Shown: positions 44,818 through 62,637 of the stretch, one piece after another
Position numbering within the stretch: position 1 is the first letter of the stretch
Layout: the number at the start of each line of letters is the position of its first letter
Assembly (NCBI GenBank): GCA_963761305.1
Contig: CAVXGK010000001.1
Coordinates: 1,696,001-1,760,000, forward strand
Direction of reading: 5' to 3'
DNA from: an uncultured Gemmatimonadaceae bacterium
Lineage (GTDB): Bacteria; Gemmatimonadota; Gemmatimonadetes; Gemmatimonadales; Gemmatimonadaceae
Length of the DNA: 64,000 nt
The notes under the pieces: model-generated
The model's database searches: none
What the model saw: only the letters and a program-made list of their open reading frames with translations
What the model was told of the DNA's origin: nothing
Program-made: the position numbers and the translations under genes

Positions 44818-45033
44818 CTAAGTCGGAAGCTCGACGTAGCCCGCGGCGGTCGTGGGTCGGGGAATCGGCAGTCCGGCAAGTCGGAGCTCCTCGAGATGCC
44901 CTTCCACCGCTTCTCGCATGTTCGCCTCGACCTCGGTGACCGTGCGTCCCGTTGACGCGCAGCCGGGAAGATCCGGCAAGTAGCCCGAGAAGCCGGAGTC
45001 TGTCGGTTCGATGAGAATCACGTATCGGCTCAT
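44818..45033 (-). CDS. hicB: HicB-family antitoxin
   Basis: YVILIE..FSGYLPDLPGCASTGRTVTEVEANMREAVEGHLE. Confidence 0.9.
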   Translation of the reverse strand: MSRYVILIEPTDSGFSGYLPDLPGCASTGRTVTEVEANMREAVEGHLEELRLAGLPIPRPTTAAGYVELPT

Positions 45034-45338
45034 GTCGGCTCCTCCTTCTTGATCTCATCGTACATCGCGTCCGGCGCGAGATCGACGCCGTTCGGCCACG
45101 TAACCGCACCGTGAGCAACGCCGACCCGCGCAAACATCGCGGGATCGCGGAGCTGTTCGAACACGCCGGCATCGTCGCTCGCAACGAGACGCGATAAGTC
45201 CACCTCGCCGCGAGTTCCGTCCGCGAATGTCACGAAGAGGCGATAGCCGCCCGCTGGGCGAACGTCCGTGACATGCCACGGCACAGGGGAACTCAGTCCA
45301 GCGGCGGAATCTGCATCAGTGCCTGGTTGTTTGCGCAT
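45030..45338 (-). CDS. DUF2442-domain protein
   Basis: VTDVRPAGGYRLFVTFADG..VDL..TWPNGVDLAPDAMY. Confidence 0.88.
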   Translation of the reverse strand: MRKQPGTDADSAAGLSSPVPWHVTDVRPAGGYRLFVTFADGTRGEVDLSRLVASDDAGVFEQLRDPAMFARVGVAHGAVTWPNGVDLAPDAMYDEIKKEEPT

Positions 45339-45350
45339 CGTTGAAGGGCC

Positions 45351-45656
45351 TTACAACACGGGTCGGCGCGATTGTAGCCAGTTGTTGAACGAGCCTTTGC
45401 TCTCCCCGGACTGTGCCCCGCGCAGGAGGTTGTCGACGCTGATGTCCTCGTCGAGATCGGGCCAATGGATGCCCTCACCGCGGCCGATGAATCGCCAATT
45501 GTTTCGTTCAGCGGGCGTCGCGGCAGCGAGGCGAGGATACCAGCCGAGCGGCACGGCAATGCTGCGTCCGTCCGCGAGATCGACGGTCAGACTGGTTGCG
45601 GACAGGCGAACTGCCTCGGCAGTGGCCGGCCGAGGTTCAATCGGCGAAGTACTCAT
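45351..45656 (-). CDS. DUF2442-domain protein
   Basis: LTVDLADGRSIAVPLGWYPRL..GIHWPDLDEDISV. Confidence 0.92.
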   Translation of the reverse strand: MSTSPIEPRPATAEAVRLSATSLTVDLADGRSIAVPLGWYPRLAAATPAERNNWRFIGRGEGIHWPDLDEDISVDNLLRGAQSGESKGSFNNWLQSRRPVL

Positions 45657-45873
45657 CCCAGCGGCTCAGAAGGAGTTGCTCGTGTTCTCGGACTACCAGA
45701 AGGATACGAGCCAGTTCACCGCGTGAGAAGTTACCGCCATTGTGCACGCGAACCGGGTCGAGCCACAGCTTTGCCCGATTGGCGTCTCGCTCCACGTGGA
45801 TATGCGGCGGCTCCGTACGATCGCCGGCAAAAAAGAAGCAGCGGTAGGGGCCGGTGCGAAGGACAGTGGGCAC
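45637..45873 (-). CDS. DUF4160-domain protein
   Basis: (M)PTVLRTGPYRCFFFAGDRTEPPHIHV..AKLWL..WDEYF; GTG start at 45873. Confidence 0.92.
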   Translation of the reverse strand: MPTVLRTGPYRCFFFAGDRTEPPHIHVERDANRAKLWLDPVRVHNGGNFSRGELARILLVVREHEQLLLSRWDEYFAD

Positions 45874-45950
45874 GGCGTCCACTGTACAGCGACGACTCGC
45901 CTGCCTCGGCATCAAAACCGCGGCCTTCGGTCCCGGTCGTTGCCGTCAGT

Positions 45951-46301
45951 TCAAACGCGTAGAACAAGCATCGCTCCGACGCCGATCAGAATACCCAGCA
46001 ACACCCACGGCCACACCGCCCTCCCGCGCGATGGACGAGGCGACTCGAGGCCAAGCCAGTCGGGGACAGGCGACGGTTCGCGCGTCAGATCCTTGGGCTC
46101 GGACCGTGCATGGCCGGCCGAGTCGAGTCGCGTCCGGCTGCTTACGCCAGTGCCGGGGATGCCAAGATTGGCATAAGTGCCCCGGCTGCCCACGTTGACG
46201 CTCGCGCCGCGCGGGCCAATGGTTGTGCTGATTCCCCGGCGCGACAGGTTGATCCGCACGCCGGGAAGCAGCCGGATGGAGCGATGAAACCGGAAGCCCA
46301 T
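45951..46301 (-). CDS. DUF4236-domain membrane protein
   Basis: MGFRFHRSIRLLPGVRINLSRRGISTTIG..GIPGTG; C-terminal transmembrane helix. Confidence 0.9.
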   Translation of the reverse strand: MGFRFHRSIRLLPGVRINLSRRGISTTIGPRGASVNVGSRGTYANLGIPGTGVSSRTRLDSAGHARSEPKDLTREPSPVPDWLGLESPRPSRGRAVWPWVLLGILIGVGAMLVLRV

Positions 46302-46338: not shown

Positions 46339-47004
46339 TTAACGAGCCTGACCGCCGGCGTTGAAAGCAACGGCGAGCTGAAAACTCACGACCCCGCCGC
46401 TGAGACCGAGCGGCACGCTGACAGAAGGCTGTATGGTCAGCACTCGGCTGACAACGAACCCCGCGCCCACCGTGGCAACACCATAGTTCTGATTGGCAGA
46501 ACTTGAAAACCCTCCGCCGCTGGCGGTGGCCTGCGCGATGACGTACGAGCCGCCAACGAACGGGACGAAATCGAATCCGGGGCTGTGGAGCGCGACGCCG
46601 CCGATCGCGCCGCCAAAGCTGAACCCATGGGTCGCTATCGACACACTGCCAAACCCGGTATCGAAGTTCGGTCCCGTTTGATACGCGAATCCCACCTCGG
46701 GGCAAAACTGAACGGTGCGTTGAGGATTGAGATCGACTGCAAAACCCGCGTCCCCGCCTACGGAAAGTCCGCTGCCCGACACGTCTTTGTATTGAACACT
46801 CGAGACGGTGCCGCTCACGAATGGACCGCTTGGCGCGCCGAACGCGATTTGACCGCCATAGCTCTGCGCATCGCTGTCGACACTGAGTCCGGCGCCGAGC
46901 CGTACGGGGCCGGCCGAGAAGGACGCGGCTCCTTCACAGACTTGAGCGTGCGTTTGTGAGAACGGCGCCAAACTAACGAGTACAGCTACGTGAACCATTC
47001 GCAT
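46339..47004 (-). CDS. Outer-membrane beta-barrel hypothetical protein
   Basis: Signal peptide from ATG 47004; Gly/aromatic-rich amphipathic strands. Confidence 0.65.
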   Translation of the reverse strand: MRMVHVAVLVSLAPFSQTHAQVCEGAASFSAGPVRLGAGLSVDSDAQSYGGQIAFGAPSGPFVSGTVSSVQYKDVSGSGLSVGGDAGFAVDLNPQRTVQFCPEVGFAYQTGPNFDTGFGSVSIATHGFSFGGAIGGVALHSPGFDFVPFVGGSYVIAQATASGGGFSSSANQNYGVATVGAGFVVSRVLTIQPSVSVPLGLSGGVVSFQLAVAFNAGGQAR

Positions 47005-47051
47005 TTTAGAGCCCTTTCCGTGGGTGGGTGAAGATCCGTCGATCGGTTGAC

Positions 47052-47497
47052 TCATCGGCTGGCACTCCAAGTACCGGTGAAGACGTACGTCGCACCGCTG
47101 ATTGCGATCGGACAATTCAGGGTTCCGCTCATTCGGTTTGGCGGACTCCCCGAAACGGTGCCGACGATCGTGCACCCACCAGCGCTGTTGAATGACACGG
47201 AGGTGCCAGAGATTTGACCGCCGGTCCATGAGGTGCCCGCCAGGCTCGACGTGCTCGCGGAGCCAAGCACCGAACACGTTTGACTTCCGCTCGCCGCGAT
47301 CCGCCAAACGAAGCGCCGGTTTGCGTAAAGTTGATCACGACCCCCTGAGCGGAACACGATGCACTCAACTGGCTGTTGCTGAAGTTGAGTGAGACCGTCC
47401 ACTGGCCGGAAATGTCGAGCGGCCCGGACGGAGCCGTGGAGTCGCTGCCGCAGGCGATGCCCGCAACGAGGCAAAGAAGACCAAGACGTCGGAACAT
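47052..47497 (-). CDS. Ser/Gly-rich hypothetical lipoprotein (frameshift near 47300)
   Basis: MFRRLGLLCLVAGIA-C lipobox; continues in the adjacent frame to ..FTGTWSASR*. Confidence 0.6.
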
Positions 47498-47555
47498 TGA
47501 TTTCTTGAGTGGGTGGTTGATGGGTGGCACGAGTCAATCGACCGATCGAGCGTGG

Positions 47556-48041
47556 CTACTTGGCACCTTTCGCCTCTGCGGCCTGTTTGATCTTCTGCTG
47601 CAGCGACGTTTCCCAGGTCGCTCTGGTAGAACATTCCTCATTTACGATCGACTGGTCGGCGAGCACGCGGGACTTGCCGATGCGCGTCCATCGCACGGTG
47701 ATTCGTAAAGAGGTATGAGATGAATCGCCTCGCACCAACGCGTTGTACGTCGCGTCGGTTGGGTACACGGGCCCCACGATCGCATCCTTTCCGCAGTCCG
47801 CCGCGTCGCCGAGGGACGGGCCGACCTTGAGGGCGTCGGTCGCGATCAATCCAGATGAGCGATCGATTGTCTTGATCGGAATATTGCTTCGCGCGAACTC
47901 GTCGATGACGGCGTCCCACGTCCGGCCAAACGACGCGCCAATGTCGATCGCATTATGCGGAGTCGGCGCCGCCGGTGGCGTCGGGAGGCAACCAACGGTG
48001 CACATCAGGGCCGCGGTAAGGACGACACGTGACCTGAGCAC
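47556..48041 (-). CDS. Hypothetical lipoprotein (possible BamC/DUF3568-like fold)
   Basis: TVG-C lipobox; ASFGRTWDAVI..IKTIDRSSGLIAT; GAGG RBS. Confidence 0.7.
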   Translation of the reverse strand: MLRSRVVLTAALMCTVGCLPTPPAAPTPHNAIDIGASFGRTWDAVIDEFARSNIPIKTIDRSSGLIATDALKVGPSLGDAADCGKDAIVGPVYPTDATYNALVRGDSSHTSLRITVRWTRIGKSRVLADQSIVNEECSTRATWETSLQQKIKQAAEAKGAK

Positions 48042-48086: not shown

Positions 48087-48117
48087 CTCTCAACGTACGA
48101 GAACCCTCTGACAGTCG
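48087..48117 (-). promoter_or_regulatory. PafBC/RecA-NDp-like promoter (TGTCAG-N10-TACGTT) for the lipoprotein-TA gene run
   Basis: Minus strand CGACTGTCAGAGGGTTCTCGTACGTTGAGAG; -10-like box 50 nt upstream of the 48041 start; 28/31 identical to 56560-56590. Confidence 0.7.
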
Positions 48118-48122
48118 GGATA

Positions 48123-48329
48123 CTGACTTCCGGAACGGCGCTGACTTCCAGACGGCGCTGACTTCCAGACGGCGCTGGCTTCCGAAGCGCGCTGGCAGAG
48201 GAACCACGTGCGGAGTTTTCGCTCCTTTTCGGACGTTCGCGCCCTTCGGAGGTTCGCGCCCTTCGGGAGTTAGCGCCTCATGGAAGTCTGCGCCGCTTGG
48301 GAGTTAGCGCCCCTCGGAAGCTGGCGTCG
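48123..48329. repeat. Inverted array of ~17-bp repeats (4 forward CTGACTTCCAGACGGCG, about 7 degenerate reverse copies YGGRAGTTAGCGCC)
   Basis: Read directly from the sequence; second-half units approximate the reverse complement of GGCGCTGACTTCCR. Confidence 0.85.
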
Positions 48330-48361
48330 TTCAGAATCAAAGAGGGTAGTTGAATCAACTC

Positions 48362-49336
48362 TCAACGTACGTCCGCAAGCATCACCACAAGCCGCTCCCG
48401 AATCGCCTTCCTCGCCTCCGGCGGCGACAAAATCTCGGCCTCACGACCGTATCCCAGCACGTGCCTCACCCCCCAATCGAGATCCGCCATCGGATACTCG
48501 ACCACGAACGACCCATCCGCCTCCTTCGTCCCCCGTTCCCGCTCCTCGATCCACCGCGCGATCTTTGCCGAGAAACGGACACGAAGCCTGACCGGCGCAT
48601 CGGACACGAACACAGGGCCACGCTCGAGCTGCGCGTCGATCGCACCCAGGTCGGGCGGCGGACACTTCTCGGCCAACACCTTCGCCGACTCGATCCGATC
48701 CACCCGAAAGACCCGAATCCCGCTGCTCCGCTCACAGTACGCCACGAGATACCAAACCGGCCCCGCCAGAATCAGCCGATACGGACAGATCACCCTCGCA
48801 CTCGACTCGGCAGCACTCCCGCGCCGATACGAGATTCGAATCTTCTGCCGCTTGCCGAGCGCCTCGCGCACGACCGCGAGCTGAACGCCGCCGACGCTCT
48901 CTGTCGAGACGGCATACGAACCATCGCCCATGAGCGCGCCCGGCAGCTTCGCCACCGCTTTACGAATTCTCTCGCGCGCCCTATCAATGGCGCGCCACTC
49001 CGCCGGCCCTCGCTCGGCGCGCAGCATCGCGAGTCCTAAGTCCAGCGCGTGCAGCTCCGCGATCGTCAATCGCATCGGGCGCCGGAAGTGGTCGGTTTTG
49101 ACGGACACACTGTCCGCCTCGATGAACACCTCCAGCCCTTCGACGAACCCGCCGGGCGTGTCGTAGCGCCCGCCGATCGACGTGAGATCGCGCACGACCG
49201 TCTTCGCGTCGACGCCGAGCATCGCCGCCATCTCTTCTATAGAGTGCTCCTCGCCGTCGGCGACGACCGGCACCAGCGCCAGCAGCCTCTTCAGCTGCGC
49301 CGACGCGTCGACCGCCCCGCCCGACGCACCCTTCAC
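48362..49336 (-). CDS. pafC: WYL-domain transcriptional regulator, PafC-like (HTH-WYL-WCX)
   Basis: LKRLLALVP..EMAAMLGVDAKTVVRDL; WYLVAYC..IRVFRVDRI; GTGA overlap with the upstream WYL gene. Confidence 0.85.
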   Translation of the reverse strand: MKGASGGAVDASAQLKRLLALVPVVADGEEHSIEEMAAMLGVDAKTVVRDLTSIGGRYDTPGGFVEGLEVFIEADSVSVKTDHFRRPMRLTIAELHALDLGLAMLRAERGPAEWRAIDRARERIRKAVAKLPGALMGDGSYAVSTESVGGVQLAVVREALGKRQKIRISYRRGSAAESSARVICPYRLILAGPVWYLVAYCERSSGIRVFRVDRIESAKVLAEKCPPPDLGAIDAQLERGPVFVSDAPVRLRVRFSAKIARWIEERERGTKEADGSFVVEYPMADLDWGVRHVLGYGREAEILSPPEARKAIRERLVVMLADVR

Positions 49337-50424
49337 CTCTCCGCCTCATACAGCGCCAGCGTCTCGCGCGCCGACTGCCGGAATGCGTCCGTGACCGCCG
49401 GCGGCGATACAGGTTTGGCCGCTCCCGCAAACGACAGGATCCAACGAACGAACCGGTCCACCGACTTCACTCGGAAGCTGCGCCGATCCCGATGGCCCGG
49501 CACCGCCGCGCCCAACTGCAACCACGGAGAAACAGCCCCGGTTTGCGTCGCGAACTCGACGACCGCCTCCGTCGCATCGGTGTCTCCCAGCTCCCACGCG
49601 AGACGCGACGTCGCGTGCGTCCGCAGATTCCACCCCTCGGGCAGCGCGAAGTCGGCCGTCTGCGGACGCGCCTTGTTCACCGCGAGGTCGCGCATCCGGC
49701 TGACGCGAAAGTTCTTGATCGCTCGCGCCGCCGGCTCGTGCGCCGCCAAGTACCAATGCGAATTCAGGAAGAACATCCCGAGCGGCTCGACCGTCCGGCT
49801 CTTCGTCGAATCGCCGGACATCGAGCGATAGACGAAGGTCAGCCGCTTGCGCGACAGCAGCGACTCCTCGAGCGCCGGCAACACGGCCGGATCGATTCGC
49901 TCGGCTCTCACAACGACATCGTCGTGGTCGTGATCGACGATTCCAGGCACATCAAACGCCAGCTTCCGCACCGCCGACCGCGCCTGCTCGGCCAGCATCG
50001 CGTCGCCGAGTTTCTGCACACGCTCGGCGGCGGCGCCGACCGCCGCGATCTCGTCGGGCTCGAACGCCAACTCCTGCACGGAGTGGTAGCCGTCCTTGTC
50101 GACCCGACTCGGCGACACCTTTCGCCCGCTCTGCACGACGGCGAGATACGGCAGATAAAAGTCCGCCGGCCGCAGCCGATACCGCTCGATCTCCCCGTCC
50201 TTGGCGATCGTCTCGATCGGCACGCCGAACGCGAGCAGCTCCGCCTTGTCGCGCTCGAACATCCGCTTGACCGTCGCCTTCTCCTTCTCCGTCGCGCGCT
50301 TGGCCAGGCGATAGGCCGGCACGTCTCCCGAGAGCTGCGTGAACGTCGCGCCGAATTGGTAGCGGAGGAGCGCGACGAGGACATCGGTCCAGCGCTGGAG
50401 CTTTGCCGACGTCACGCGAGTCAC
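49333..50424 (-). CDS. pafB: WYL-domain transcriptional regulator, PafB-like (HTH-WYL-WCX)
   Basis: AKLQRWTDVLVALL..KRMFERDKAELLAFGVPIE matches the PafB N-terminal signature RMFERDKxELxxxGxP; RTVEPLG..HWYLAA..FRVSRM; GTG start at 50424. Confidence 0.85.
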   Translation of the reverse strand: MTRVTSAKLQRWTDVLVALLRYQFGATFTQLSGDVPAYRLAKRATEKEKATVKRMFERDKAELLAFGVPIETIAKDGEIERYRLRPADFYLPYLAVVQSGRKVSPSRVDKDGYHSVQELAFEPDEIAAVGAAAERVQKLGDAMLAEQARSAVRKLAFDVPGIVDHDHDDVVVRAERIDPAVLPALEESLLSRKRLTFVYRSMSGDSTKSRTVEPLGMFFLNSHWYLAAHEPAARAIKNFRVSRMRDLAVNKARPQTADFALPEGWNLRTHATSRLAWELGDTDATEAVVEFATQTGAVSPWLQLGAAVPGHRDRRSFRVKSVDRFVRWILSFAGAAKPVSPPAVTDAFRQSARETLALYEAER

Positions 50425-51130
50425 GCTCGGCCTGCTCCCTTCGGCGATGAGCGTCGAGGTGATACGGCTTCGAGCGGTCGACAGTCGACAAATATCTTGT
50501 GGACGAACTTTGAAAGACGATGTTCGCTGAGACCCAGCGATGCATCCATCAGCCGAAGCGCACCTCGCCACTCCTCGACGGTGTCAGGGCCATGCATCGC
50601 CGGTCGTTCGTAAAGTAGACAAGCGCAAGATGCGCATCGATGTCATTGTCCTCGCGCAAGAACTGCAGGAATGCCAAACGATTTGCGTACTGAAAGAAAG
50701 GGCTGCTAGCCCAATCAACCTTAGAGCGCGGAGCCAAAGACCTTCGCGTACGGCCGAGAGATTTGCGAATGGTCTCAAGGGATGTCCCCGCCGCTCTTGA
50801 CGCGCCCGAAAGAAGCTCTGGAATGTGAGCTTTGGCCTCTAACAGAACGTATTGGTCATCTATCACCGCGATCGCATCCCACACCGGGCCACGGCGAGGC
50901 CAGAAGTCCGCGAGGGGGCGGCGGCTAGGCTCTCTGCCAATTTGACGAAAGACCTCGCCATCGCGCGCCTCACGAAACTCAGGAGCATGCGGCGATTTCC
51001 AGGATACTTCGGTGTTGGGTCGGCCGACCGCGCTCGACAATGCGGTTTCAAGTGCCGGCATCCGCGTCGACACCGCTCGCTGTATCCAAGCTTGGCTGCC
51101 CCGCTCGGCTGACTGCGTGTTTTCGGCCAT
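50421..51130 (-). CDS. Hypothetical PD-(D/E)XK-like nuclease (frameshift near 50598)
   Basis: GPVWDAIA..LLEAKAH..QYANRL; the shifted frame continues MHGPDTVEEWRGAL..KIFVD.. and stops in a GTGA overlap with the pafB start. Confidence 0.6.
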
Positions 51131-51182
51131 AGTCGCTCCAGAAGTGGTTGGTATCGACGCGTTGGCGGGACCTACCGCTGAC

Positions 51183-52277
51183 CTATTTGATCACGGTCTC
51201 GATGCCAAGCTGGTCATGCTCGACGACGGCGCGCGGAAAACGCGCCGGAAGCAACGCCAGCAAATCACGGTGTATCCCCGACCACGGCTGTGACAAGTTC
51301 AGAGTGGCGGCCAGGAAGGGATGACCGAACAACGCAACGCTCACCCGCAGGCTTTCCGTCGTTCGCGGGTAAACCAATATGCCTCCCACCCGAGCTCTAT
51401 CCTCACCGGGCGTGAGATGGCTCATGTAGGCGAACATCTGGTAGAGATTCGCCGAATGTAGGCTGCTCTTCGTGAAGTGCTCACCCAGTGCGGCGGAATA
51501 GTACTTGGCGTCGACAACGATGGTCTGAGTCCTGTCGTTCAAGACAATGTCGGTACGCATTTCAGGCAGGTACGCCAGATCTTCATCGGCCCCGCTCGCT
51601 CGCCAACCGAAGCGCGGTGCGTTCACCTCAAAATGCCTCTGCTCTTTGGCGAAAAAGCGCCGGAGGAACTTCTCGAAGAGCCCCGCCATCTGCTGATCGT
51701 CCCTCGTGAAGTCACGGAACTCGACCTCGCCGGTGTCCTCGTTGACGAGCAGGTTTCGATGGACGATCTCACACACATCCAAGAGGAACCCGTAGTACGC
51801 ATTGTTGCGGCCGAGCACGACCCTACGGAAACTCTGTCCAGTGATTCGCGTTTCTTGTACCCCGGGCATTCGGCGGTACAGATCCCTGAGTCGTTCCGCT
51901 AGGTCCGGGTTCAAATCGGCCGCGGCGGCGAGACGCCGCAGCGTCGTCTTGACGATTCGGTTGTGCACCACGTCGGGCGAGAGCTCATCGAAGACACAGT
52001 GGGCACGCGCGCGGGCGAACGTCGTGCGTTTGATCGATGCCCCGAGATCCAATCTCCCTCTGATTCCCGCAATTTCATCCTCGTCGGTGACGTACGTTCG
52101 GTCTAGGCCGCGCTTCAGCAAATGCGTCAGCCCACCGATGAGAACACGGGCTAGCAGGTCCTGAAGCCGCATTTCCGGCGTCACGGTCACGCTCGCGAGT
52201 TCGGCCTCCTCCAGTGTGTCCCACGCATAACAGAGCAGGTAGTAGATGTTCTCGATCGGAATGACGGCTGGAGGCAC
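51183..52277 (-). CDS. mcrC: McrC 5-methylcytosine-specific restriction endonuclease subunit
   Basis: IPIENIYYLLCYAW, LFEKFL, MRTDIVL..VVDAKYY, NLYQMFAY. Confidence 0.93.
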   Translation of the reverse strand: MPPAVIPIENIYYLLCYAWDTLEEAELASVTVTPEMRLQDLLARVLIGGLTHLLKRGLDRTYVTDEDEIAGIRGRLDLGASIKRTTFARARAHCVFDELSPDVVHNRIVKTTLRRLAAAADLNPDLAERLRDLYRRMPGVQETRITGQSFRRVVLGRNNAYYGFLLDVCEIVHRNLLVNEDTGEVEFRDFTRDDQQMAGLFEKFLRRFFAKEQRHFEVNAPRFGWRASGADEDLAYLPEMRTDIVLNDRTQTIVVDAKYYSAALGEHFTKSSLHSANLYQMFAYMSHLTPGEDRARVGGILVYPRTTESLRVSVALFGHPFLAATLNLSQPWSGIHRDLLALLPARFPRAVVEHDQLGIETVIK

Positions 52278-52280
52278 GCG

Positions 52281-54508
52281 TCAATCCGAGAGAATCTTGA
52301 GACACTCTGCGACCGTAGTGCGATCGTCGAACCAGTATTCGTCCAGCAAGGGAGCGATCTCCTCCCGCACGACGCCGGCGTACCAGGCCGACGACTGGGT
52401 CACAGGACCGGTCGGGCAGAAGTAGCTGTGGCCGATGGCAAAACCGGGGCCCAGGTTCTTGTGATCCGCCGCGATCCGCCTGTTAACCTCACCGACACGT
52501 TCGAGAATCCGATCGATGACCGCGTCGTCAACGCCTCGCTCGAGGAGCATGCGGCGGAACGGCCGGGCTCGCGAATGCGGGTTCGAGCGTCACGAACGCG
52601 AATCGCCGCCGCAGAGCGTAATCCACCATCGCTAGCGAGCGATCGGCTGTGTTCATCAAGCCTATGATGAAGACATTGTCTGGGACATAGAATGTGTCAC
52701 TCGCCGATTCAGCGTACGTGAGGGGGATGGCGAACTCCGGCCCCCGCTTGTCGCCCTCAATCAGAAGGAGCAGTTCGCCGAATACTTTGCTCAGATTGCC
52801 GCGGTTGATCTCGTCGATGACGAAAACGTGCGGCTCGCCGGGTCGAGACTGCGCTCGGCGGCAGAACTCGTGGAAGACGCCGTTGCGCAGCGCGAAACCA
52901 CCACCGCCATTTGGGCGCCATCCTTGAATGAAATCCTCATAGGCATAGCTCTGATGAAACTGCACCATCTGCACGTTGTCGGGCGATTCGGCCCCGACCA
53001 GCGCATACGCCAGCCGTCGCGCGAGAAATGATTTGCCGACTCCCGGAGAGCCCTGGATAATCAAATTTTTCCGGCGGCGGATGCTGGCGAGAATCTGTTC
53101 TACTGTGTCGCGGGACAGGAAAGCCTCCCGCAGGATGTCTTCAACCCCGTAGGGCTTCGGTTCGGCAAGGGCCGGGACGCCGGCTCCGCTCTGCTCGCGA
53201 ACGACCTCGCGAACTGCCTGATACTGCGTAATGTCGGTGAGGGTCTTGAGCGGGAGCTGCGCGGTTTCGGGAAGCGTCCAGTTGCCCTTCTGAAGCCACT
53301 CGACGCGGCGGACGTTTCGGAAGTCGGGTCTGGACGAGTCGTATTGGTACTCGCTGGCGATGCGACCGCGGCCGAGGATGCGATCGCGGCCTTGTTTCAC
53401 GTAGACCTCGTCACCGACGGCAATGTCGTGACAGAACTGGTAGCAGGCGAGCGAGTCGTTCGTGGGATCCTGCTCGCGGTCATACAGCCGCTTGATCGCC
53501 GCACGAATGTCGTCCTGCTTCGAATACTGCCCCAGGTCGCCGAGCTCATCCCAGCCGATCGCGACGAGCCCCTGCTCTAGGAATGCGGGCCATCGATCGG
53601 CGCCTTGCCCCGCACCGATCGCCCACACTCGGGCCTTGGACGGGTAGGGTCTGGCGGGCAATGGCTCACTAATCTGCGTCGCGTCGGCCTTCTCGGGCGG
53701 ATCGGCGTCGCGCCACCGCGCAGCGATTTCAGGTACTTCGTAAAAGTCGACCCAAGTCCCCGGTCGTTCCGCTTCCAAGGCGTGTCGCAAGTGCCAGAGC
53801 CGTCGATCGCGGGCCAACGCTGTCGGTGCGCGATCTTTCAAGTCCAGCGCCTGCGCCTGAAGCATCCCGGCGAATGCCCTCTCAACGCTTTTTTTGTCCG
53901 ACTTCGAGGAGATTCGCTCGAACTCGTCGGGAAAGAGAAGGTGAAGGAGCATATGGCGGAGTTGCCGGGACGTTGCATCAGGCAACCGGTCGAACCAGTC
54001 GGCGAACCCCCACGGATCCTTGAGCAGCGATGCGCGCTCCGAGACATCCAAGGCCTTTATCGCCTCGGTGAACCGAACTAGCAGGAACAGCTCGAAAGGG
54101 CCGGTAGTTGTTGTAGCCCATGCCCCCGCTGCCAATTCCCCTCTCGAAGACGTCGAGCATTCGATTGGGGTCGCGCAGTGGAGTGCCGGACCAATCCCAC
54201 ACTGTGCGGACGAGATTGACCTTCGTGGCGCGCTTGAGATTGCTCGGGAACAGCATCATCACCCAAAGCATCTCCGCGGCCAGCTGCGTCGCTTCCGTCG
54301 GAGCCGGCGCCAGCTGATCGCGCAGCTTTTCTTCGAACGTGCGATCACCCTCGTCCGGCTTCTCAACGAAATGTTGGACGAGGTCGCGGGCGTGCTCAAT
54401 TGTCCAAATGGCGCCCGCCTGGAAGATCGACCCGTCGGCGACGAGGCAATCGCGTTTCCATCGATCGGCTGCGTCGTAGATGACGGTGTTCTCAGTTAGT
54501 CGCGCCAC
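52281..54508 (-). CDS. mcrB: McrB-family AAA+ GTPase with two N-terminal domains (frameshifts near 54110 and 52560)
   Basis: [57 protein letters not shown] over three ORFs. Confidence 0.93.
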
Positions 54509-54582
54509 GGAATCCGAAAGGTTTCAGGTGACTGTAGTGGAAAGAGAGCGAATGTGGCTGGCGCGGGCGTCTGATCATCGGG

Positions 54583-55746
54583 CTATCGGCCTGAACGGGC
54601 AAGCTCAGAGAGAAGGCCCGTCTGTCCGATGCCCAACACCCGATCGCGCCAACGCTGGGCATCCGACACCGCGACCGCCTTGCTGTGGGCCGCCGGATTT
54701 CGGACGTCAGACAATTCCCTCAGCACAGCGGGGAGGCTGGCCGTGAACCACTCTCCGCTGGCACCGAGTCGGCGCTTGAGTGCCTGGTTCAGGTGCTGCG
54801 CCTCGCCGATGAGGCGCGCCAGCGCACCGAGAGGCCAGTGTTCGCCGGCTGTTGGATCAACGCTACGTCCATCGACGTTGGTCAGACGATCGGATGTGGG
54901 CACCCCAGACAGCCCGCGGCGGAGGATGATGTTCGTCTGAAGCTCGATTGCCTTTGCGAAGTCGAGGACGACGGGCGAGAAGTCAAACGCGGGGTCCCTT
55001 CTGTGGGCGCGAAAGAGTGATTCAGCTGTCGCAACGAACGTGCGAACCGCCGGATCAAGCGCGTGCCAAGTTCTCTGGCCGACGACGTTGTCTCGCAATT
55101 CCCCTTCGAGTTCGCCGATACCAGCTCGCTCGGCGTCGAACTCGACCCAATACCGCCCTTCGATCAGCTTCTCTCGAACGTCCGGCTCGAAGTACCGTGC
55201 GCCATCGTCCCTAGTGACGATCAGCGGCAGTTCTACCATTCCGCCGTAGATCGAGACTGGTCGGTCATTGTAGCGGGTGTTGCGCAACTTCTTGAGCTCC
55301 TCGATGACAGCGATGGTATCGTCCAAAATCACGCGGCGAATGTCGAATAGTTTGAACCAGCAGTCGCACCGGAGATCGGACGTTCGATAGAAAGCTGGAA
55401 CGTACGCCTCCTCTCTTTTGTCGGCGCGCAGATCGTTAGCGATGATCTCGCCGACGTGCCCGACGTATAGCGATCGGTAGTCTGTCAAATAGAGATGTAC
55501 CTCTTCGTCGCCATCGGCCTCCTGTCGAAGCACCTCATCCATGGCGAGAATGTCGTCCAGGTGCGGTAACGGCGCTTGGCGGTTTGGAGACTTGGCCTTG
55601 CCCCACCAGACGAACACGTCCTCTTCCTCGAGTTTTCCGTCTCGGTGCGCGCGAGCGTGTTGAAGAAGCAGAGCCACGCTCGCGCTCATTGCATCGGCCG
55701 CGTAGGCCGGATTCCACACGCTGACCAGGTGACGCGCGCTTGTCAT
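54583..55746 (-). CDS. HP0729-like protein with a C-terminal HEPN-type RxxxxH motif
   Basis: N-terminal WNPAY..WWGK..LYLTDYRSLYV resembles the HP0729 family from memory; C-terminal helical region with FAKAIE and VRNPAAH. Confidence 0.65.
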   Translation of the reverse strand: MTSARHLVSVWNPAYAADAMSASVALLLQHARAHRDGKLEEEDVFVWWGKAKSPNRQAPLPHLDDILAMDEVLRQEADGDEEVHLYLTDYRSLYVGHVGEIIANDLRADKREEAYVPAFYRTSDLRCDCWFKLFDIRRVILDDTIAVIEELKKLRNTRYNDRPVSIYGGMVELPLIVTRDDGARYFEPDVREKLIEGRYWVEFDAERAGIGELEGELRDNVVGQRTWHALDPAVRTFVATAESLFRAHRRDPAFDFSPVVLDFAKAIELQTNIILRRGLSGVPTSDRLTNVDGRSVDPTAGEHWPLGALARLIGEAQHLNQALKRRLGASGEWFTASLPAVLRELSDVRNPAAHSKAVAVSDAQRWRDRVLGIGQTGLLSELARSGR

Positions 55747-55938
55747 TCCGTGCTCCCGGGGACACTGGGCGGTTCAGACTGCCGGCGTGACGATATCGGT
55801 GACATCGACGCGGGCGGCGAGCCAAACGGGACTATTGGTCAAGTCCGTTTGGCGAACCAGCAGTCAGAATCGGCCGTGAATGTGCACCCCAGCCGCCGAT
55901 CCCGCGAGACGCCTGGCACGTATCGCAACATCAGCGTT

Positions 55939-56526
55939 CTAATTGCTCTTCTCTTCGGCCGTTACGATTGCCTCGGCCGGTTCGGCTCCGGCGAAAACCA
56001 CGCTCATCAAGCCCGGGAAGTAGTGTTCGCAGCACCCCAGCGCCGTGTGAACCATGCGTCGGATCATCTCGGGGACGATCGCCCCACCGCTCGCGTCGAT
56101 GGTCAGGCGAAACCGCATCTCGCCGTCGCCCGGATCCAACTCGAAGTTTCCGGTGCGTAGCCGCCAGTTGGCCCGATTCAGGTAGTCCAAGGCGCGGGCG
56201 CGTTGTGGCTCGGGTGCGTTGACGCCGATCTCCGCCACGCAGAGCAGTACCGGCCGGTCATCGTATGCCTTGAAGCACAGGCGATAGGATGCGTGGATCG
56301 CTCGCACGGAACAGCATATCTGATTGACGCCAAGGAGATGTGATTGCCACTGGAATTCGCCGAGGACTCCGGCGACCGTCGCAATCAGCGGGTGCGGAAC
56401 CATCGCCTCCTGACGTTCGACGACTCCGCTAAGCTGTTGCCCTGTCAGCGTGTCGAGCCAGATCTCTGTTCCATCGTCGTCCCGGGAAAGACGAACGATT
56501 CGCTGCTCATCCTTCTTTGTCTCCAA
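55939..56526 (-). CDS. YbjN-domain protein
   Basis: RARALDYLNRANWRLRTGNFELDPGDGEMRFR. Confidence 0.85.
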   Translation of the reverse strand: METKKDEQRIVRLSRDDDGTEIWLDTLTGQQLSGVVERQEAMVPHPLIATVAGVLGEFQWQSHLLGVNQICCSVRAIHASYRLCFKAYDDRPVLLCVAEIGVNAPEPQRARALDYLNRANWRLRTGNFELDPGDGEMRFRLTIDASGGAIVPEMIRRMVHTALGCCEHYFPGLMSVVFAGAEPAEAIVTAEEKSN

Positions 56527-56559
56527 GGGTACCTCGCTGAGAAAGCGTTGAAACCCGCT

Positions 56560-56590
56560 CTCTCAACGTACGGCACCCCTCTGACAGTCG
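56560..56590 (-). promoter_or_regulatory. PafBC/RecA-NDp-like promoter (TGTCAG-N10-TACGTT) for the ybjN-HEPN-mcrBC-pafBC run
   Basis: Minus strand CGACTGTCAGAGGGGTGCCGTACGTTGAGAG; -10-like box about 40 nt upstream of the ybjN start. Confidence 0.7.
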
Positions 56591-56629
56591 ACTCGTGGAT
56601 GCGGTTGCGGGTCGCGGTGCGCGCAGCCA

Positions 56630-56657
56630 GACTGTCAGACCCCACCGTGAGATTGAG
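56630..56657 (+). promoter_or_regulatory. Divergent PafBC-like promoter (TGTCAG-N10-GAGATT) for the TM0106 nuclease-helicase
   Basis: GACTGTCAGACCCCACCGTGAGATTGAG, ending 20 nt before ATG 56678. Confidence 0.6.
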
Positions 56658-56677: not shown

Positions 56678-59600
56678 ATGCAACCTGACGGCGCCGCCGT
56701 TCTCTACTCCGCCAAGGATCTCATCAACTTCCTTGGCTGCCAGCACAGCACCGCTCTCGACCTCCAAGTCGCGGCGCGCGCGCTGCGCGCGCCGGAAGGT
56801 GTCGAAGACGGCTACCTCGACCTCCTCAAAGCCAAGGGTAACGCGCACGAACGCGCCTATCTCGAAAAGCTGAAGGCCGAAGGCAGGTCCGTGCGCGAGA
56901 TAACGCGCGTCGAGTCGCTGGACGAAATGACCGCGGCGACGCGTCAGGCGATGCGTGACGGCGTGGACGTCATCTACCAGGGTGCTCTGCGTTCCGGGCC
57001 GTGGCACGGGTATTCGGATTTTCTCTTGCGCGTCGACGTTGCGTCCGACCTCGGCAACTACTCGTACGAGGTCGCCGACACCAAGCTGGCCCGCACAGCA
57101 CAACCCAAGCACGTCGTACAGCTGTGCATCTACTCCGAACTGGTCGCGCGCGAGCAGGGGCTGCGCCCGAAGCACACGCATGTCGTGCTCGGCGACAGCA
57201 GCGCGGTGACCTTGAGGGTCGAAGACTACCGCCACTATGTGGACGTCGTGCGCGAGCGGTTCGAAGCGTTCGCCACCGGCAAGCACGAGACGGAAGCCGA
57301 GCCTTGTTCGCACTGCGAGCTTTGCCGCTGGTCGGAGCGCTGCACCGAGGAGTGGGAGGCGACCGACAGCCTCCGACTCGTCGCACGGCTCAGCGGCACA
57401 CAAGCCACAAAGTTGCGCGCCGCGGGGGTGACGAACCTCCGCGAGCTGGCTGTTGTCGACGATCGCCAGATCCCGAAAATGCGGGCTGAGACCCTCCAGC
57501 GCTTGCGCGCGCAGGCTCGGCTTCAGGACGTGAAGCGCAGAACTGGTGAGAACTGCGTCGAAACGCTAACGCTGGAACCGCACCGCGGTTTCGCGCGCCT
57601 GCCACAGCCGCACCAAGGCGACCTCTTCTTCGACATGGAGGGCGATCCGGTCTACTCGGCGGATGGCTCCCTGGAATACCTGTTCGGATTTCACCACGTG
57701 GACGCCGGCGAAGAAAAGTTCACGCCGTTTTGGGCGCGCGACCGTGCCTCGGAGAAGAAAGCATTCGAAGACGCCCTCGATTTCATCACGGCGCGGATTG
57801 CGCGGTTTCCCGACGCGTTCGTCTACCACTACGCCGTCGTACGAGGAAGTCGCGCTCAGAAAGTTGGCGCGGAAATACGGCACCTCGGTGTCGGCTGCGG
57901 TGGCCGAGCCGGACAAGAAACAGGTAGACGCCATCAAGCGGCTGGCACAGCAGTACGGCACGCGCGAGGACCAGGTTGACGACCTGCTCCGAGGCCGCAA
58001 GCTGGTAGACCTATATAAGGTAGTCCGAGAGGGGATCCGAGACCTCCGAGCCATCATACTCGCTCAAGAACCTCGAGGCGTTCTACGCCCCGGAGCGGAC
58101 GGAGGTGATCACGAGCGGCAGCGACAGCATCGTCGCGTTCGAGCGCTGGCTCGCGCTGGGCGACGAGACGCTGCTCCACCAAATCGAGGAGTACAACGCG
58201 TTCGACTGCCGCTCGACGAAGCTCTGCCGCGATTGGTTGCTGTCGCTGCGGCCCGTCCGAGGTGGAGTGGTTCGATCCCAAGAAAGCGGACGCGCAAGAC
58301 GCCGAGAAGGAAAAGGAGCGCGAGGCGAAGCGCCGAGCCAGCGACGCGCGCATTCTTGAACTTCGCCAGGCGCTCGTTCTGAACGTCTCCGACGACGAAC
58401 GCCCGTGGCGCGAGCTCCTCGGTTACCTGCTGGAATACCACCGCCGCGAGGCGCGGCAGGAATGGTGGCAGTTCTTCGCACGCCGGGACGCGCGTGTCGA
58501 AGAATTGATCGAGGATGCTGACTGCATCGGTGGGCTGATCGTGGACACATCGGTGCCACTCAGCGGCCTGAGAAGAAGTCGAAGGTTTGGACGCTACGCT
58601 TTCCGGAGCAGGAGCTGAAGCTCGGCGCCGGCGACAAGGTGGTGCGCGCGGATACTGGTGAGGGGCTCGAGATCATGTCGCTCGACGAGCGCGCGTGTAC
58701 ACTGGAGCTCAAGGTGGGTCCGTCGCGCGAGCCATTGATCGACGGCATCTCGTTGATCCCGCCGCGGCCCGATGAACGACACCACTCAGCGCGAGGCGAT
58801 CGTCAGGTATGCCGAGGCGGTTATTGCCGGACGCGAGAAGGACTACGCCGCAATAACGAGCATCGTTCGGAAGGATCCGTCCGAGGCTGACGGACGCGGT
58901 CATCTTGGGCGGAGGCGGCACGTCGGACTTGCTGTCAGGGACAATCGACGCGGTCGGACGAATGGACAACTCGCACCTGGTCATTCAGGGCCCGCCCGGC
59001 ACCGGCAAGACATTCACGTCGGCACATGCGATCGTCGAGCTGTTGAAGAATGGCAAGCGCGTCGGGGTCACCGCCTTTACGCACAAGGCGATCAACAATC
59101 TGCTGAATAAGATCGAAGAGGTTGCCCGGGAGCGCGGCGTGAAGTTCACGGGCGTGAAGAAGTCCTCGAGCGACACCGAACAACGGCTCGGCGGTTCAGT
59201 CATAGTAGACACGGACGACAACGCCGTCGCGACCAGCGACGACTATCAACTCGTCGCCGGTACGGCGTGGCTGTTTTCACGGCCGGAGCTTGACCGCAGG
59301 CTCGATTACCTGTTCGTGGATGAAGCCGGCCAGATGAGCCTCGCGAGCGTCGTGTCATGTGGCGCGAGCGCCAGGAACATCGTGCTCGTGGGAGACCAGA
59401 TGCAGCTCTCGCAGCCGGTCAAGGGCGCGCACCCGGGCGGGAGCGGCGTCTCTGCGTTGGATCACCTGATGGGTGACTGGGCCACGGTGCCGGAGGACCG
59501 TGGGATCTTTCTCGCGAAGACATGGCGCATGCAACCCGACCTGTGCCGGTTCGTGTCGGATGCCTTTTACGACGGGCGGCTCGAGTCGGTGGAGTCCGCC

Positions 59601-60127
59601 GCGCAACAGAAGCTGATTCTTTCGGGCGAACGCTCGCGGCGCGCTCGCGCCATTCGGGCTGCGATTCGTGCCGGTGGAGCACGAGGATCGGTCGCAGAAG
59701 AGTGACGAGGAAGCCGATCGGCTGAACGGCGTATATCGTGAGCTGCTCGGACAATGCTGGGTGAATCAGCGCGGCGAGACGAAGTCGATCACCATGGATG
59801 ACATTCTCGTGGTGAGCCCGTACAATATGCAGGTGAATCTGCTGAAGCTCGTGCTGCCGAACGGCGCTCGCGTGGGCACCGTGGACAAGTTTCAGGGCCA
59901 GGAGGGCGCCGTGGTGCTGATCTCGATGGCGGCGTCGAGCGGCGAGCACATTCCGCGCGGGATAGAGTTCCTGTTCGTCGCGAAATCGGTTGAACGTGGC
60001 TATGTCTCGTGCTCGTTGCCTGTCGACCATTCTGGCGTCGCCGCTGCTGTTGGGCGTCACGTGCGGCATTCGGTTCGAGCAGATGCGGCTGGCCAATGTC
60101 ATTTGCTGGTTCGCGTCGTATGTCTAA
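56678..60127 (+). CDS. TM0106-family RecB-like nuclease fused to an RNase-H-like domain and an SF1 (DNA2/UPF1-like) helicase (many frameshifts)
   Basis: YSAKDLINFLGC, DFLLR..EVADTK, FFDMEGDP, YNAFDC, QGPPGTGKT, VDEAGQ, VGDQMQL, GTVDKFQGQE, NRLNVAMSRA. Confidence 0.92.
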
Positions 60128-60266
60128 GGCGGCCAAAATATCGGTCGACCCTCACAGCTTTCCCCAGTCGGAACGACACCGCCAACTAGGCAATGCGCCA
60201 CGACCGCTGCAGCGCGGCGGATTGCACGGACGGTCGCCCGCACAATGAGCATGCAATCGCCCGACG

Positions 60267-60698
60267 ATGGATCGAATCAATAGACGGCGGCGTTCGGCAA
60301 ACATGGCGGCGATCCGTGGTCGAGATACGACTCCGGAACGCGCTGTAGCGGCCGCGCTCAAACGTCTGCGATACACCTTTCGGACTCACGCGCGCGAACT
60401 ACCCGGTCGACCTGACTTTGTCCTCCCTCGTCGGCGAATGGCCGTTCTCGTTCACGGCTGCTTCTGGCACCGCCACCGAACCTGTCGATTCGCGTATACG
60501 CCGAAATCCCGCATCGATTTCTGGATGGCGAAGTTCGCCGAGAACGTTGCCCGCGACCGCAGGGTACGGCAGGCCTTACGGCGCGACGGCTGGCGTGTGA
60601 TCGAAATATGGGAGTGCCAGACTGACGAGCCCACGCGACTCGATCGGCGCTTGAAGCGTGCGATCAAGGGGCCCGTAGAGCGGGTTGAAGACCAGTGA
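60267..60698 (+). CDS. vsr: Very-short-patch repair endonuclease
   Basis: RSANMAAIRGRDTTPE, LPGRPDFV, VHGCFWH, FWMAKFAENVARD, IWEC. Confidence 0.96.
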   Translation: MDRINRRRRSANMAAIRGRDTTPERAVAAALKRLRYTFRTHARELPGRPDFVLPRRRMAVLVHGCFWHRHRTCRFAYTPKSRIDFWMAKFAENVARDRRVRQALRRDGWRVIEIWECQTDEPTRLDRRLKRAIKGPVERVEDQ

Positions 60699-62188
60699 AG
60701 AAGGGCGGATTGGAGGATGTTACACCCCGCCCGGGTGAACTCATCGATTCGCTCCGCGACTTCGGATACACGTTGCACTCGGCCATCGCGGACCTCGTGG
60801 ACAACAGTATCACGGCGGAGGCGCATAAGATCGCTATAACCGTTGCGCCAGAAGGTCAGCGCCCCGCGCACATCGGTGTCGTCGATGACGGCAGAGGAAT
60901 GTCTGTCGAGACGCTTGTCGAGGCGATGCGGCTCGGGACGAAGGGGCCGCGGGCCACGCGAGCGCCGGGCGATCTGGGCCGTTTCGGCCTCGGGATGAAA
61001 ACCGCGTCGCTGTCCCAAGGCAGATCGGTGACCGTCATTACAAAGCGCGCCGGAGAAGAACCGAGTGGCCGCTGTCTGGATGTGCGGTTCGTACGGGATG
61101 AAAAGGCGTGGTCGCTGAAGGCGCCAGACTCGCGTCTTGCGATTGAGTACGCGGCGATCGTCGATGCTCAGGCGTGCGGCACAGCGGTCATCATCGAGGA
61201 CCTAGATCGCGCCACCTTTCTCAAAGTGCCGCCCGCCCAGTTACACGAGCACCTCGGCATGGCATTAAGCATCGTGGCTGACCATCTGGGCCTAGTCTTT
61301 CATCGATTCATTGCCGACGGTCTGCAGATTCGAATCGGCGAGAAAACCATCGCCGGCTGGGATCCGTTTCTCTCCGGACAGTCCACCGCGCTGCCCACGA
61401 GGCATGCGTCTCGAAGGAGCGCCGATCGTCCTGTCACCTTATGTACTTCCACATAAGTCAAGGCTTTCGTCAGATGACGAACACACGCGCGCGGGCGGGC
61501 CCCGCGGCTGGAATGAGCACCAAGGGTTCTACATTTACAGGTGCGGTCGTCTGATCGTGCCCGGCACGTGGCTGAACTTGGGACGAAGAAAGAGGAGCAC
61601 TATAAGCTCGCACGAATCGCCGTTGATCTTCCCAACAGTATGGATGAGGCATGGCACCTGAACGTGACGAAAGCGCACGTTGCCGCGCCAGCGTATCTCC
61701 GGGATGATCTGCGGCGCATCGCCCGTCGGACACGGAGCGATGCGTCAAACGTCTTCCGGTATCGAGGAGAGCGCGCAGCGCCGACGCAGGGACCACCAGA
61801 ACGGTTCGTATGGAAGCGCGAGGAGACGCAATCCGGCGTCCGCTTCCGTATCGACCGGAGTCACCCGGTGATCCGCGCGCTACTCCATGCGGGTTGTGGA
61901 CACGAAAGTCTGCTGAATGGTGCGTTCGAGCTGGTGGAGCGTACGGTGCCGATTGCGGCAATGCTTCAGGATCCGGGAAGCGCCGTTGACGGGAGCGTCG
62001 AAGATCCGGATGCCAAATTGCTGACGCACATGGCGTCACTGGCGAGTCACACGCAGGCTTTCCTGATCCGCGCGGGCAAGTCTCCGCAACAGGCCCGTCA
62101 CATCGTACTCACCTCCGAACCGTTTGTTCGCTGGCGCGCAGCGCTCCAGCCCCTCCTCGGAAGCGACTTAGTCAACTCTGAACCATGA
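60695..62188 (+). CDS. MutL/MORC-like GHKL ATPase (MzaB-like; frameshifts near 61400 and 61590)
   Basis: LRDFGYTLHSAIADLVDNSITA, DDGRGM, DLGRFGLGMKTAS, QGFYIYR, YKLARI; GTGA overlap with vsr. Confidence 0.9.
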
Positions 62189-62637
62189 GCGCTCCTTTCA
62201 CTCAGTTCACTGCGGCGCAGGTCGTTGAAATCCTGATGCAGTTGTTTCAGAGCGGGGCGGACGTCACGCCAGCTCAAGTCCAGGAACGGGTCCAACAATT
62301 CTTGGAAGCGCCGGGTTTCGGCCACCTGAAGCCCGAGATCGCCTCGATCGTCGACGAAATACTGCGGCGCATCAAAGTCGTGATTGGTGCGGCGGCCGTT
62401 CTTGATGACGATGACGATCACATCGACTGGCTTGAGGACGCGGACCGATCGAGCTGGCGTCTGTGGCCGCGGCTTGAGGATTATCTGAAGCGCATCGACA
62501 AATTGCCGCCCGCCGTCGTCGGTGAGGTCGGCCGATCCACGGATCTCGTACTCAAACGGTTGGAAAGCCCTGAACGCGATGGACAATGGGACCGACGCGG
62601 CTCGTGGTAGGACATGTTCAGTCTGGAAGACGACCCA
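62185..62637 (+). CDS. N-terminal fragment of a Z1-domain protein (MzaC-like), cut at the junction
   Basis: ATGA overlap with the ATPase gene; ..WDRRG(L)VVGHVQSG(KT) Walker-A-like motif typical of Z1 proteins, then an abrupt change of sequence. Confidence 0.8.

Follow-up and report, generated by a model that had tools for sequence, protein, structure and literature searches.

Two adjacent genes in a stretch of 64,000 nucleotides from an uncultured Gemmatimonadaceae bacterium (positions 1696001-1760000 of contig C1 of genome G000, which is 5.2 Mb long and 93%-complete; the whole stretch is called the window below) are, judged by their sequences, orthologues of pafB and pafC, and three copies of a bipartite box in the same island are likely the promoters at which the encoded pair of WYL-domain proteins activates transcription. 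Together with the same pair and the same box in related genomes, they outline what we read as a PafBC regulon of the Gemmatimonadota that is Pup-free, patchy and mostly local, and that serves in part defence, DNA-end processing and the envelope. In actinobacteria PafBC is encoded together with pafA in the Pup-proteasome locus, and sigma adaptation has to our knowledge been shown in mycobacteria only. New would be the PafBC regulon in the Gemmatimonadota, whereas the parts and the logic are known, i.e. from PafBC itself and, as far as a WYL activator of defence genes is concerned, from DdaA. For the PafBC proteins known from Mycobacterium smegmatis and Arthrobacter aurescens (PDB 7P5X, 9FND, 6SJ9), PMC8635444 and PMC11804915 describe sigma adaptation and give the mycobacterial promoter as tGTCgg-N10-tA-N3-T. 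No PafBC or PafBC motif in Gemmatimonadota was found in the literature that was searched, outside of which Müller 2018 (Cell Rep) and the Keller/Weber-Ban 2023 review might mention homologues; a class A WYL protein of 330 aa from G. phototrophica AP64 is tabulated in the supplement of PMC6789036.

The features that carry the argument are the following, with window positions and with box-to-gene distances that run from the last T of the -10 hexamer to the gene start; the scores are those of a position weight matrix (PWM) discussed below.

49333..50424, minus strand: pafB orthologue, 363 aa, winged helix-turn-helix (wHTH)-WYL-WCX; predicted DNA-reading subunit (WYL and WCX by Pfam, profile, Foldseek, tree)
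48362..49336, minus strand: pafC orthologue, 324 aa, HTH_PafC-WYL-WCX; predicted sigma-contacting subunit (Pfam, profile, tree)
48092..48113, minus strand: box 1, TGTCAG-N10-TACGTT, 50 nt 5' of the first lipoprotein gene; PWM rank 1, 23.1
56565..56586, minus strand: box 2, TGTCAG-N10-TACGTT, 38 nt 5' of ybjN; PWM rank 3, 20.1
56633..56654, plus strand: box 3, TGTCAG-N10-GAGATT, 23 nt 5' of the TM0106 gene; PWM rank 2, 21.2

The start of pafB was picked from an alignment with relatives; the gene overlaps pafC by 4 nt, and the two are the only WYL genes of the genome. WYL and WCX were recognized in both products, HTH_PafC in the pafC product only (57.7 bits at a cut-off of 32), and NCBIfam holds no family that matched either protein. 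Profiles built from 45 B-type and 37 C-type relatives were run against the PDB, upon which the B-type profile recovered PafB best (141 bits; DriD 61, PafC 57, BrxR/CapW 26-33) and the C-type profile PafC (136 bits; PafB 82, DriD 78, BrxR/CapW 33-41). Likewise, when the B protein was modelled with AlphaFold (pLDDT 83, pTM 0.48), the top Foldseek hit was PafB (9fnd_X), with TM-scores that are low because the domains are loosely placed in the model. A tree computed from 82 proteins places every one of the 33 B-types on one side of one branch (support 100/99) and every one of the 31 C-types on one side of another (100/97), and both clades hold actinobacteria-like sequences linked to pafA, from loci of a metagenome scan in which a Pup ligase lies beside pafB and pafC. 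The outgroup consisted of 18 single WYL proteins and the root was not inferred; the B-types had been collected via a conserved motif, the metagenomic rows were labelled by gene context alone, one outgroup row (L016) was left out as too short, and DriD, DdaA, BrxR and CapW were not among the rows. Since the gemmatimonad-type rows form clades of their own (100/99 each) that stand beside, and not within, the pafA-linked ones, the tree points to an old orthologous pair and not to a recent transfer. Pup_ligase had no match in G000, nor was there one among the recurrent neighbours of pafBC in 66 loci and the window. Together with the profiles and the tree, this corroborates the proposal of the initial annotation, a non-actinobacterial PafBC homologue pair with no pafA or pup nearby. 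Natural PafB-PafC fusions make up five of 44 clean pairs, and no PafB relative was found among 43 candidates in viral contigs.

The residues that matter for function in the known proteins are largely retained. Taking the DNA-contact residues of M. smegmatis PafB from PMC8635444, K5, R8, R50, K52 and Y76 are kept in 45/45 rows and R46 in 43/45, and the position of R56 is Arg in 38/45 rows and Leu in the G000 protein. As to the WYL-domain residues that bind single-stranded DNA (ssDNA), taken from PMC11804915, R181, Y196 and R214 of PafB are present in all 45 rows and R211 in 43, R208 is Arg or Lys and R204 is unconserved; R201 and R204 of PafC are found in all 37 rows.

The pattern GACTGTCAG-N10-NNNNTTGAG has exactly three matches in the window, at 48089-48116 (-), 56562-56589 (-) and 56630-56657 (+), and these are also the only ones in the whole 5.2-Mb genome; 100 shuffles of the window yielded 0.01 matches on average and not once three. 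The boxes are non-palindromic and all lie in the sense orientation 23-50 nt before first genes, box 3 being divergent from box 2, in agreement with the three correctly oriented copies within about 50 nt of first genes that had been noted at the outset. Of the motif then described, the core TGTCAG-N10 holds and the flanks do not: a longer version with flanking GAC...GAG was rejected, as these flanks represent a local duplication and lie outside the motif conserved in relatives. With a PWM derived from 44 sites in other genomes only, the three boxes are the only sites in G000 that score above 17 (the next, at 16.9, is intragenic). The -10 hexamer of box 3 (GAGATT) is non-consensus; a G in first position occurs in 6/37 training sites. 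A regulon spanning G000 as a whole was rejected, the best sites after the three boxes being intragenic or facing away, and recA and lexA, both of which are encoded in G000, have no box.

A 260-bp insertion separates pafC from box 1:

48118..48377, no strand assigned: repeat-bearing insertion of 260 bp, absent in genome G460

It duplicates the -10 half of the box (TACGTTGAGAGT) into the pafC stop codon, and it is a dispersed genus-level repeat with copies scattered in genome G337; contigs from three of four runs lack it and join 48117 straight to 48378.

One could regard the pair as a BrxR/CapW-type repressor of a defence island and the boxes as its operators, given that McrBC and Mza-like genes are close by and that boxes 2 and 3 are mutually inverted. 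The profiles, however, place BrxR/CapW at 26-41 bits as opposed to 136-141 for PafB/PafC, so that an outcome named at the outset as speaking against the initial proposal did not occur; moreover, the box lacks palindromic symmetry, its -10 element is fixed, and no canonical sigma-70 promoter that could be blocked is present at the three sites. We hold a repressor to be extremely unlikely. A general scan for sigma-70 promoters and terminators gave counts at chance level (3 vs 2.9; 17 vs 14.5).

Conservation of the box was assessed in relatives. PafC had a match in 110/401 genomes of the phylum, and from 60 of these up to 20 kb around the match was taken; genes in these loci were called with a codon model of our own, and their starts are approximate. 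The consensus that emerges is (Y)TGTCAG-ASSS-N6-YANNNT. When TGTCAG-Nk-NANNNT is counted at intergenic, sense-oriented positions of the 60 loci, there are 30 occurrences at k=10 vs 0-4 at nine other spacers; across G000 as a whole an N10 excess is absent (19 vs 16-25). Within the family to which G000 belongs (f1) the signal is strong, with 32 vs 0-5 occurrences in 26 loci; the 34 loci from outside this family give a weak one (9 vs 0-5). Held-out metagenomic loci at >=40% identity, from which three that were near-identical to training loci had been removed, show it as well (N10 11 vs 0-2; 38 loci), as to a lesser degree do more distant metagenomic loci (3 vs 0-1; 39 loci), and the enrichment and conservation that had been anticipated are thus found. 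Furthermore, the first ATG lies 5-8 nt past the -10 element in 19/94 boxes against a background of 4%, i.e. at the spacing of leaderless promoters, and this excess implies that the hexamer is a real -10. The spacing within divergent box pairs is variable, as expected of independent promoters. In family f1, strict matches occur in 26/29 PafC-positive vs 18/64 PafC-negative genomes and, outside the training loci, number 55 vs 27; for this count the positions of the matches in two genomes (G140 and G303) were inferred, and leaving out one negative genome (G157) changes nothing.

The same association is seen when one hotspot is compared between close relatives. Two genomes of the same genus (G131 and G337) have no WYL gene, and in 74 kb of the same hotspot they have no box that scores above 15. 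At this hotspot G460 has the pair, with three boxes in its locus (L001) and two nearby, one of them weak; it keeps box 1, as well as box 2 before ybjN, and has a box of its own before each lipoprotein gene. These comparisons support the view that the boxes are tied to the PafB/PafC pair and that they are hybrid promoters of the PafBC type.

The mechanism that we propose on the model of mycobacterial PafBC is as follows. PafB and PafC would form a heterodimer whose WYL domains bind ssDNA, and at the three promoters of the form TGTCAG-N10-NANNNT it would be this ssDNA-bound state that activates the housekeeping RNA polymerase. By analogy, helix 3 of PafB (R54, R58) would read the GTC of the -26 element and sigma region 2 the -10 hexamer, with PafC wedged between the DNA and sigma region 4, i.e. 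sigma adaptation. That PafBC activates the boxes, by whatever geometry, seems very likely to us; that it does so by sigma adaptation is probable. Replication stress, phage DNA or the resection of DNA ends by nucleases that travel with the pair could each be the source of the ssDNA. In G000 the regulon would be local and include the TM0106 helicase-nuclease, the lipoproteins and the run of ybjN, the HP0729-family gene and mcrBC, which may reach pafBC, while recA and lexA would stay on ordinary promoters. If the boxes are read in the mycobacterial way, sigma adaptation operates in a phylum that is distant and abundant in soil, without a Pup-proteasome and with a sigma factor in which two of the three known contact residues are missing. 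It thereby becomes testable how general sigma adaptation is, and how cells silence their accessory nucleases and restriction systems as long as DNA is undamaged and no phage DNA enters.

Several observations weigh against this proposal. As to the protein contacts, the wing tryptophan of PafB (W70) is absent, and the three PafC-contacting residues of sigma region 4 are reduced to one (R442): the position of R416 is Tyr in 24/24 aligned sigmas and that of S446 is Glu or Asp (Glu in the most conserved sigma-70 of G000). PafBC might hence activate via another contact with the polymerase, such as recruitment through sigma region 4 or the beta flap, and in line with this the gemmatimonad PafC has an invariant residue of its own, R57. 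The -26/-10 geometry is nevertheless that of the mycobacterial promoter (PMC8635444) and leaves no room for a -35 contact, and the equivalent of PafC D62 is acidic (Asp/Glu) in 32/37 rows, for which reasons we consider activation through a different contact unlikely.

As to the boxes, no genome-wide enrichment is seen in family f2 (its 55 positive genomes have 17 matches and its 111 negative ones 32), 20/59 pafBC loci have no box scoring above 16, and kin genomes are not independent, by which significance is overstated. A model built from nine out-of-family sites ranks boxes 1 and 2 fourth and sixth and leaves box 3 outside the top 12. Boxes with scores of 20-23 also precede addAB in two genomes without a WYL gene (G103, locus L159; G383, locus L161), one of which is a single contig and 99% complete; they are either relics or read by another factor. 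For the latter, an alternative sigma or an unrelated activator could be thought of that reads all boxes, with pafBC merely sharing the islands. A box-like site before a sigma gene (TGTCAG-N10-TAGAAT at C2:2501685), which is the top site of the out-of-family model, would fit in with this, as would the presence of five related sigma-70 genes in G000, all of them short (about 285-300 aa; C1:184655-185506 and four paralogues), with no long RpoD among the sigma-70 matches. We rejected the C2:2501685 site as a member of the regulon because the WYL-less G131 and G337 keep it and because the gene has its own TTGACG...TATCCT promoter. On the other hand, the GTC that would be read by the conserved arginines of PafB is part of the box, 12/59 loci of relatives have a box no more than 300 nt from pafB (in seven more a box heads a run that includes pafB), and at the orthologous hotspot boxes and pair are jointly absent, which makes a foreign reader of the boxes quite improbable. 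Two further WYL-less genomes, G089 with five matches and G015 with three, were not counted as support; in the distant G015 a box-like site (C8:22833, locus L293) lies 5' of a run with a recA fragment and is probably due to chance.

Finally, mcrB, TM0106 and MORC, i.e. several of the target genes, are frameshifted in the window. The circuit could thus once have been real and now be decaying in a relic island, a view to which the repeat insertion behind pafC lends itself too. Against decay, pafB, pafC and the three boxes are all intact, the breaks lie towards the faulty end of the contig (see below), and at two of them related contigs differ by single bases, as with assembly errors: TM0106 falls into six tblastn segments in three frames, and one base each is missing from related contigs at 58040 and 58252. 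A relic is very unlikely in our estimation.

Compared with known systems, the pair is closest to PafBC in that two coupled or fused wHTH-WYL-WCX proteins occur in B-then-C order, DNA-reading and ssDNA-binding residues are conserved, the hybrid promoter has its -26 and -10 elements 10 nt apart, and the system occurs alongside LexA. It differs in its occurrence in Gemmatimonadota with no Pup ligase found, in its patchiness (known PafBC is near-universal), and in the size of the regulon, which comprises three boxes here as compared with about 150 genes and in G000 is no genome-wide repair regulon with recA; a recA box occurs in few gemmatimonad genomes. The TGTCAG-ASSS consensus is another difference, as are the wing tryptophan and the two sigma-4 contacts, and boxes that precede pafB hint at autoregulation, in contrast to the unchanged PafBC levels of mycobacteria. 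DdaA of the Moraxellaceae (PMC12392091) is similar as a WYL activator that joins DNA-damage genes with anti-phage systems (restriction-modification, CRISPR), but the protein is a homodimer that binds a palindrome some 50 bp 5' of the start, and sigma adaptation is argued against in that paper. DriD of Caulobacter (PDB 8TP8, 9PFQ) is likewise an ssDNA-activated wHTH-WYL-WCX activator, yet a homodimer with a palindromic site and lower scores (61/78 bits vs 141/136 for PafB/PafC). As opposed to both, there are two distinct subunits here, with a direct bipartite -26/-10 box and variable spacing in divergent pairs. BrxR/CapW (PMC9122601, PMC11662680) share the setting of WYL regulators in defence islands but are single-gene repressors and the weakest structural matches. 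MXAN_1359/MXAN_1360 of Myxococcus xanthus, compared here by description, are LexA-regulated and were not taken further in PMC12288472, whose passages on them give neither a regulon nor a motif.

The other genes of the island are listed below.

55939..56526, minus strand: YbjN-family (type III secretion chaperone-like) gene, PF10722; first after box 2
54583..55746, minus strand: HP0729-family gene with Pua-like N-terminus, PF24405 (NF041917 below cut-off); recurrent pafBC neighbour
51183..54508, minus strand: mcrB (three frameshifted pieces) and mcrC, AAA_5 and McrBC; modification-dependent restriction
50549..51130, minus strand: open reading frame with a D...EAK nuclease-like motif, seen by eye in the protein; adjoins the 5' side of pafB
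56678..60189, plus strand: TM0106-family RecB-like nuclease/helicase in frameshifted pieces, TIGR03491 above cut-off; first after box 3
60267..62610, plus strand: vsr, MzaB-like MORC ATPase (two pieces) and start of MzaC/Z1; cut by a join near 62,620
46339..48041, minus strand: genes behind box 1 for two lipoproteins and an outer-membrane protein, all predicted; signal/lipobox-like sequence, no Pfam match
44818..46301, minus strand: DUF4236, DUF4160, two DUF2442 and a hicB-like gene (Pfam); co-directional, probably not all box-driven

The run behind box 2 consists of ybjN, the HP0729-family gene, mcrBC, the nuclease-like open reading frame (without a match in Pfam, NCBIfam or PADLOC), pafB and pafC, with gaps of up to 192 nt. 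In NCBIfam McrC scored 338.4 at a cut-off of 338, and McrB was a partial match. The gene initially called HEPN does have a C-terminal RxxxxH (HEPN-like) motif, seen in the sequence only; the family assignment is replaced by HP0729/Pua-like. A positive feedback loop had been proposed as well: pafBC does lie in the box 2 run, but the loop needs a 6.1-kb transcript, and no box stands directly before pafB in the window (best score 3.0). Taken together with the relatives, feedback appears plausible and not universal. In the second unit that had been delineated, box 3 heads TM0106, and vsr and the Mza-like genes follow up to the point at which the contig is cut within Z1. As for the third unit that had been delineated, box 1 indeed heads the lipoproteins; its extension to DUF4160, DUF2442 and hicB is doubtful because those genes stand box-less in WYL-less relatives (the DUF2442/hicB homologues of G131 and G337).

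In relatives, the first genes after 75 boxes comprise 15 envelope genes, 11 vWA, 8 pafB, 7 AddAB/RecBCD, 5 TM0106/DUF2779/exonuclease, 5 YbjN/TY-chaperone, 4 HD/AAA/ARPP/HEAT, 3 yraN-recA, 3 Hma-type defence units, 1 DUF4236 and 13 unclassified genes; HsdM, Mrr or Hma genes lie inside some of the box-headed units. The targets are hence mixed (envelope, vWA, AddAB/RecBCD, chaperones, restriction), and the defence regulon that was initially suggested is supported in part only. Among the recurrent neighbours of pafBC (66 loci and the window) are AddAB/RecB-type genes (22), vWA (17), TM0106/DUF2779 (13), HP0729 (13) and Uma2 (10); one query for full-length AddA gave no match in G000. Across the phylum the pair is patchy and travels with genes for DNA-end processing, conflict and the envelope. 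A conserved vWA protein of 415-465 aa is the commonest single box target, even distant from pafBC (loci L077, L084, L110, L117, L135, L163, L167, L169). YbjN/TY-chaperone genes repeatedly head box units (L136, L137, L100, L115), one of which runs on into a helicase-HNH gene and an HsdM methylase.

The motif scan at recA, negative in G000, was positive in relatives. Among 80 recA loci, a box lies 5-6 nt before the yraN-recA start in three PafC-positive genomes (G136, G282 and G203; loci L139, L147 and L149), with a weak box before recA in one further genome, i.e. in 3 (+1 weak) of 30 PafC-positive, 0/32 negative and 0/18 untyped genomes. Kin with the same pafBC locus (G092, G257, G265) have no box at yraN-recA. 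As the three genomes are close kin, their recA boxes probably go back to one event, and regulon capture can be followed by setting them beside their box-less relatives. The pair occupies a stable locus in genus g9, where the boxes are scattered over the chromosome; in one clade it is at a stable locus and three members carry a box at the yraN-recA promoter. It is conceivable, though we would not yet call it probable, that sigma adaptation is an old, portable, cross-phylum switch, in which PafBC and its 22-bp box form an ssDNA alarm that can be plugged in and that uses a sigma factor whose contact surface has been rebuilt, wiring island cargo first and later, from a fixed locus, capturing the leaderless yraN-recA; the genomes would then display stages of a new damage regulon arising beside LexA. 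Across the family, yraN-recA has an apparent leaderless promoter with a GGTGAC/GATGAC-like upstream element and a -10 about 6 nt before the ATG (L173-L252). Immediately 5' of recA a TTCGTATTTTRTTCGGG element is seen repeatedly, which may be the phylum's LexA box.

Because the PafC-like protein has its nearest named relatives in the Gemmatimonadaceae (63-87%) and because the part of the window between 35.5 and 46 kb shows synteny with two genomes of the same genus, the island is, on sequence grounds, assigned to the gemmatimonad. Past about 62,620 the GC content of the contig falls to 48-57%, against 66% for the host, and housekeeping genes appear, on account of which we read a probable chimeric join near 62,620, by which the Z1/MzaC gene is interrupted. 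Among the genes in the final 33 kb of the contig (C1:1758620-1791416) are infC, rpmI, rplT-like and citrate synthase-like ones, named by the appearance of their sequences. Further PafB/PafC pairs without Pup genes in the surrounding DNA, one of them fused, were seen in three other clades (L373, L389, L390; L372, L374, L376, L379, L382; L365, L368, L371), and the family extends past Actinobacteria and Gemmatimonadota.

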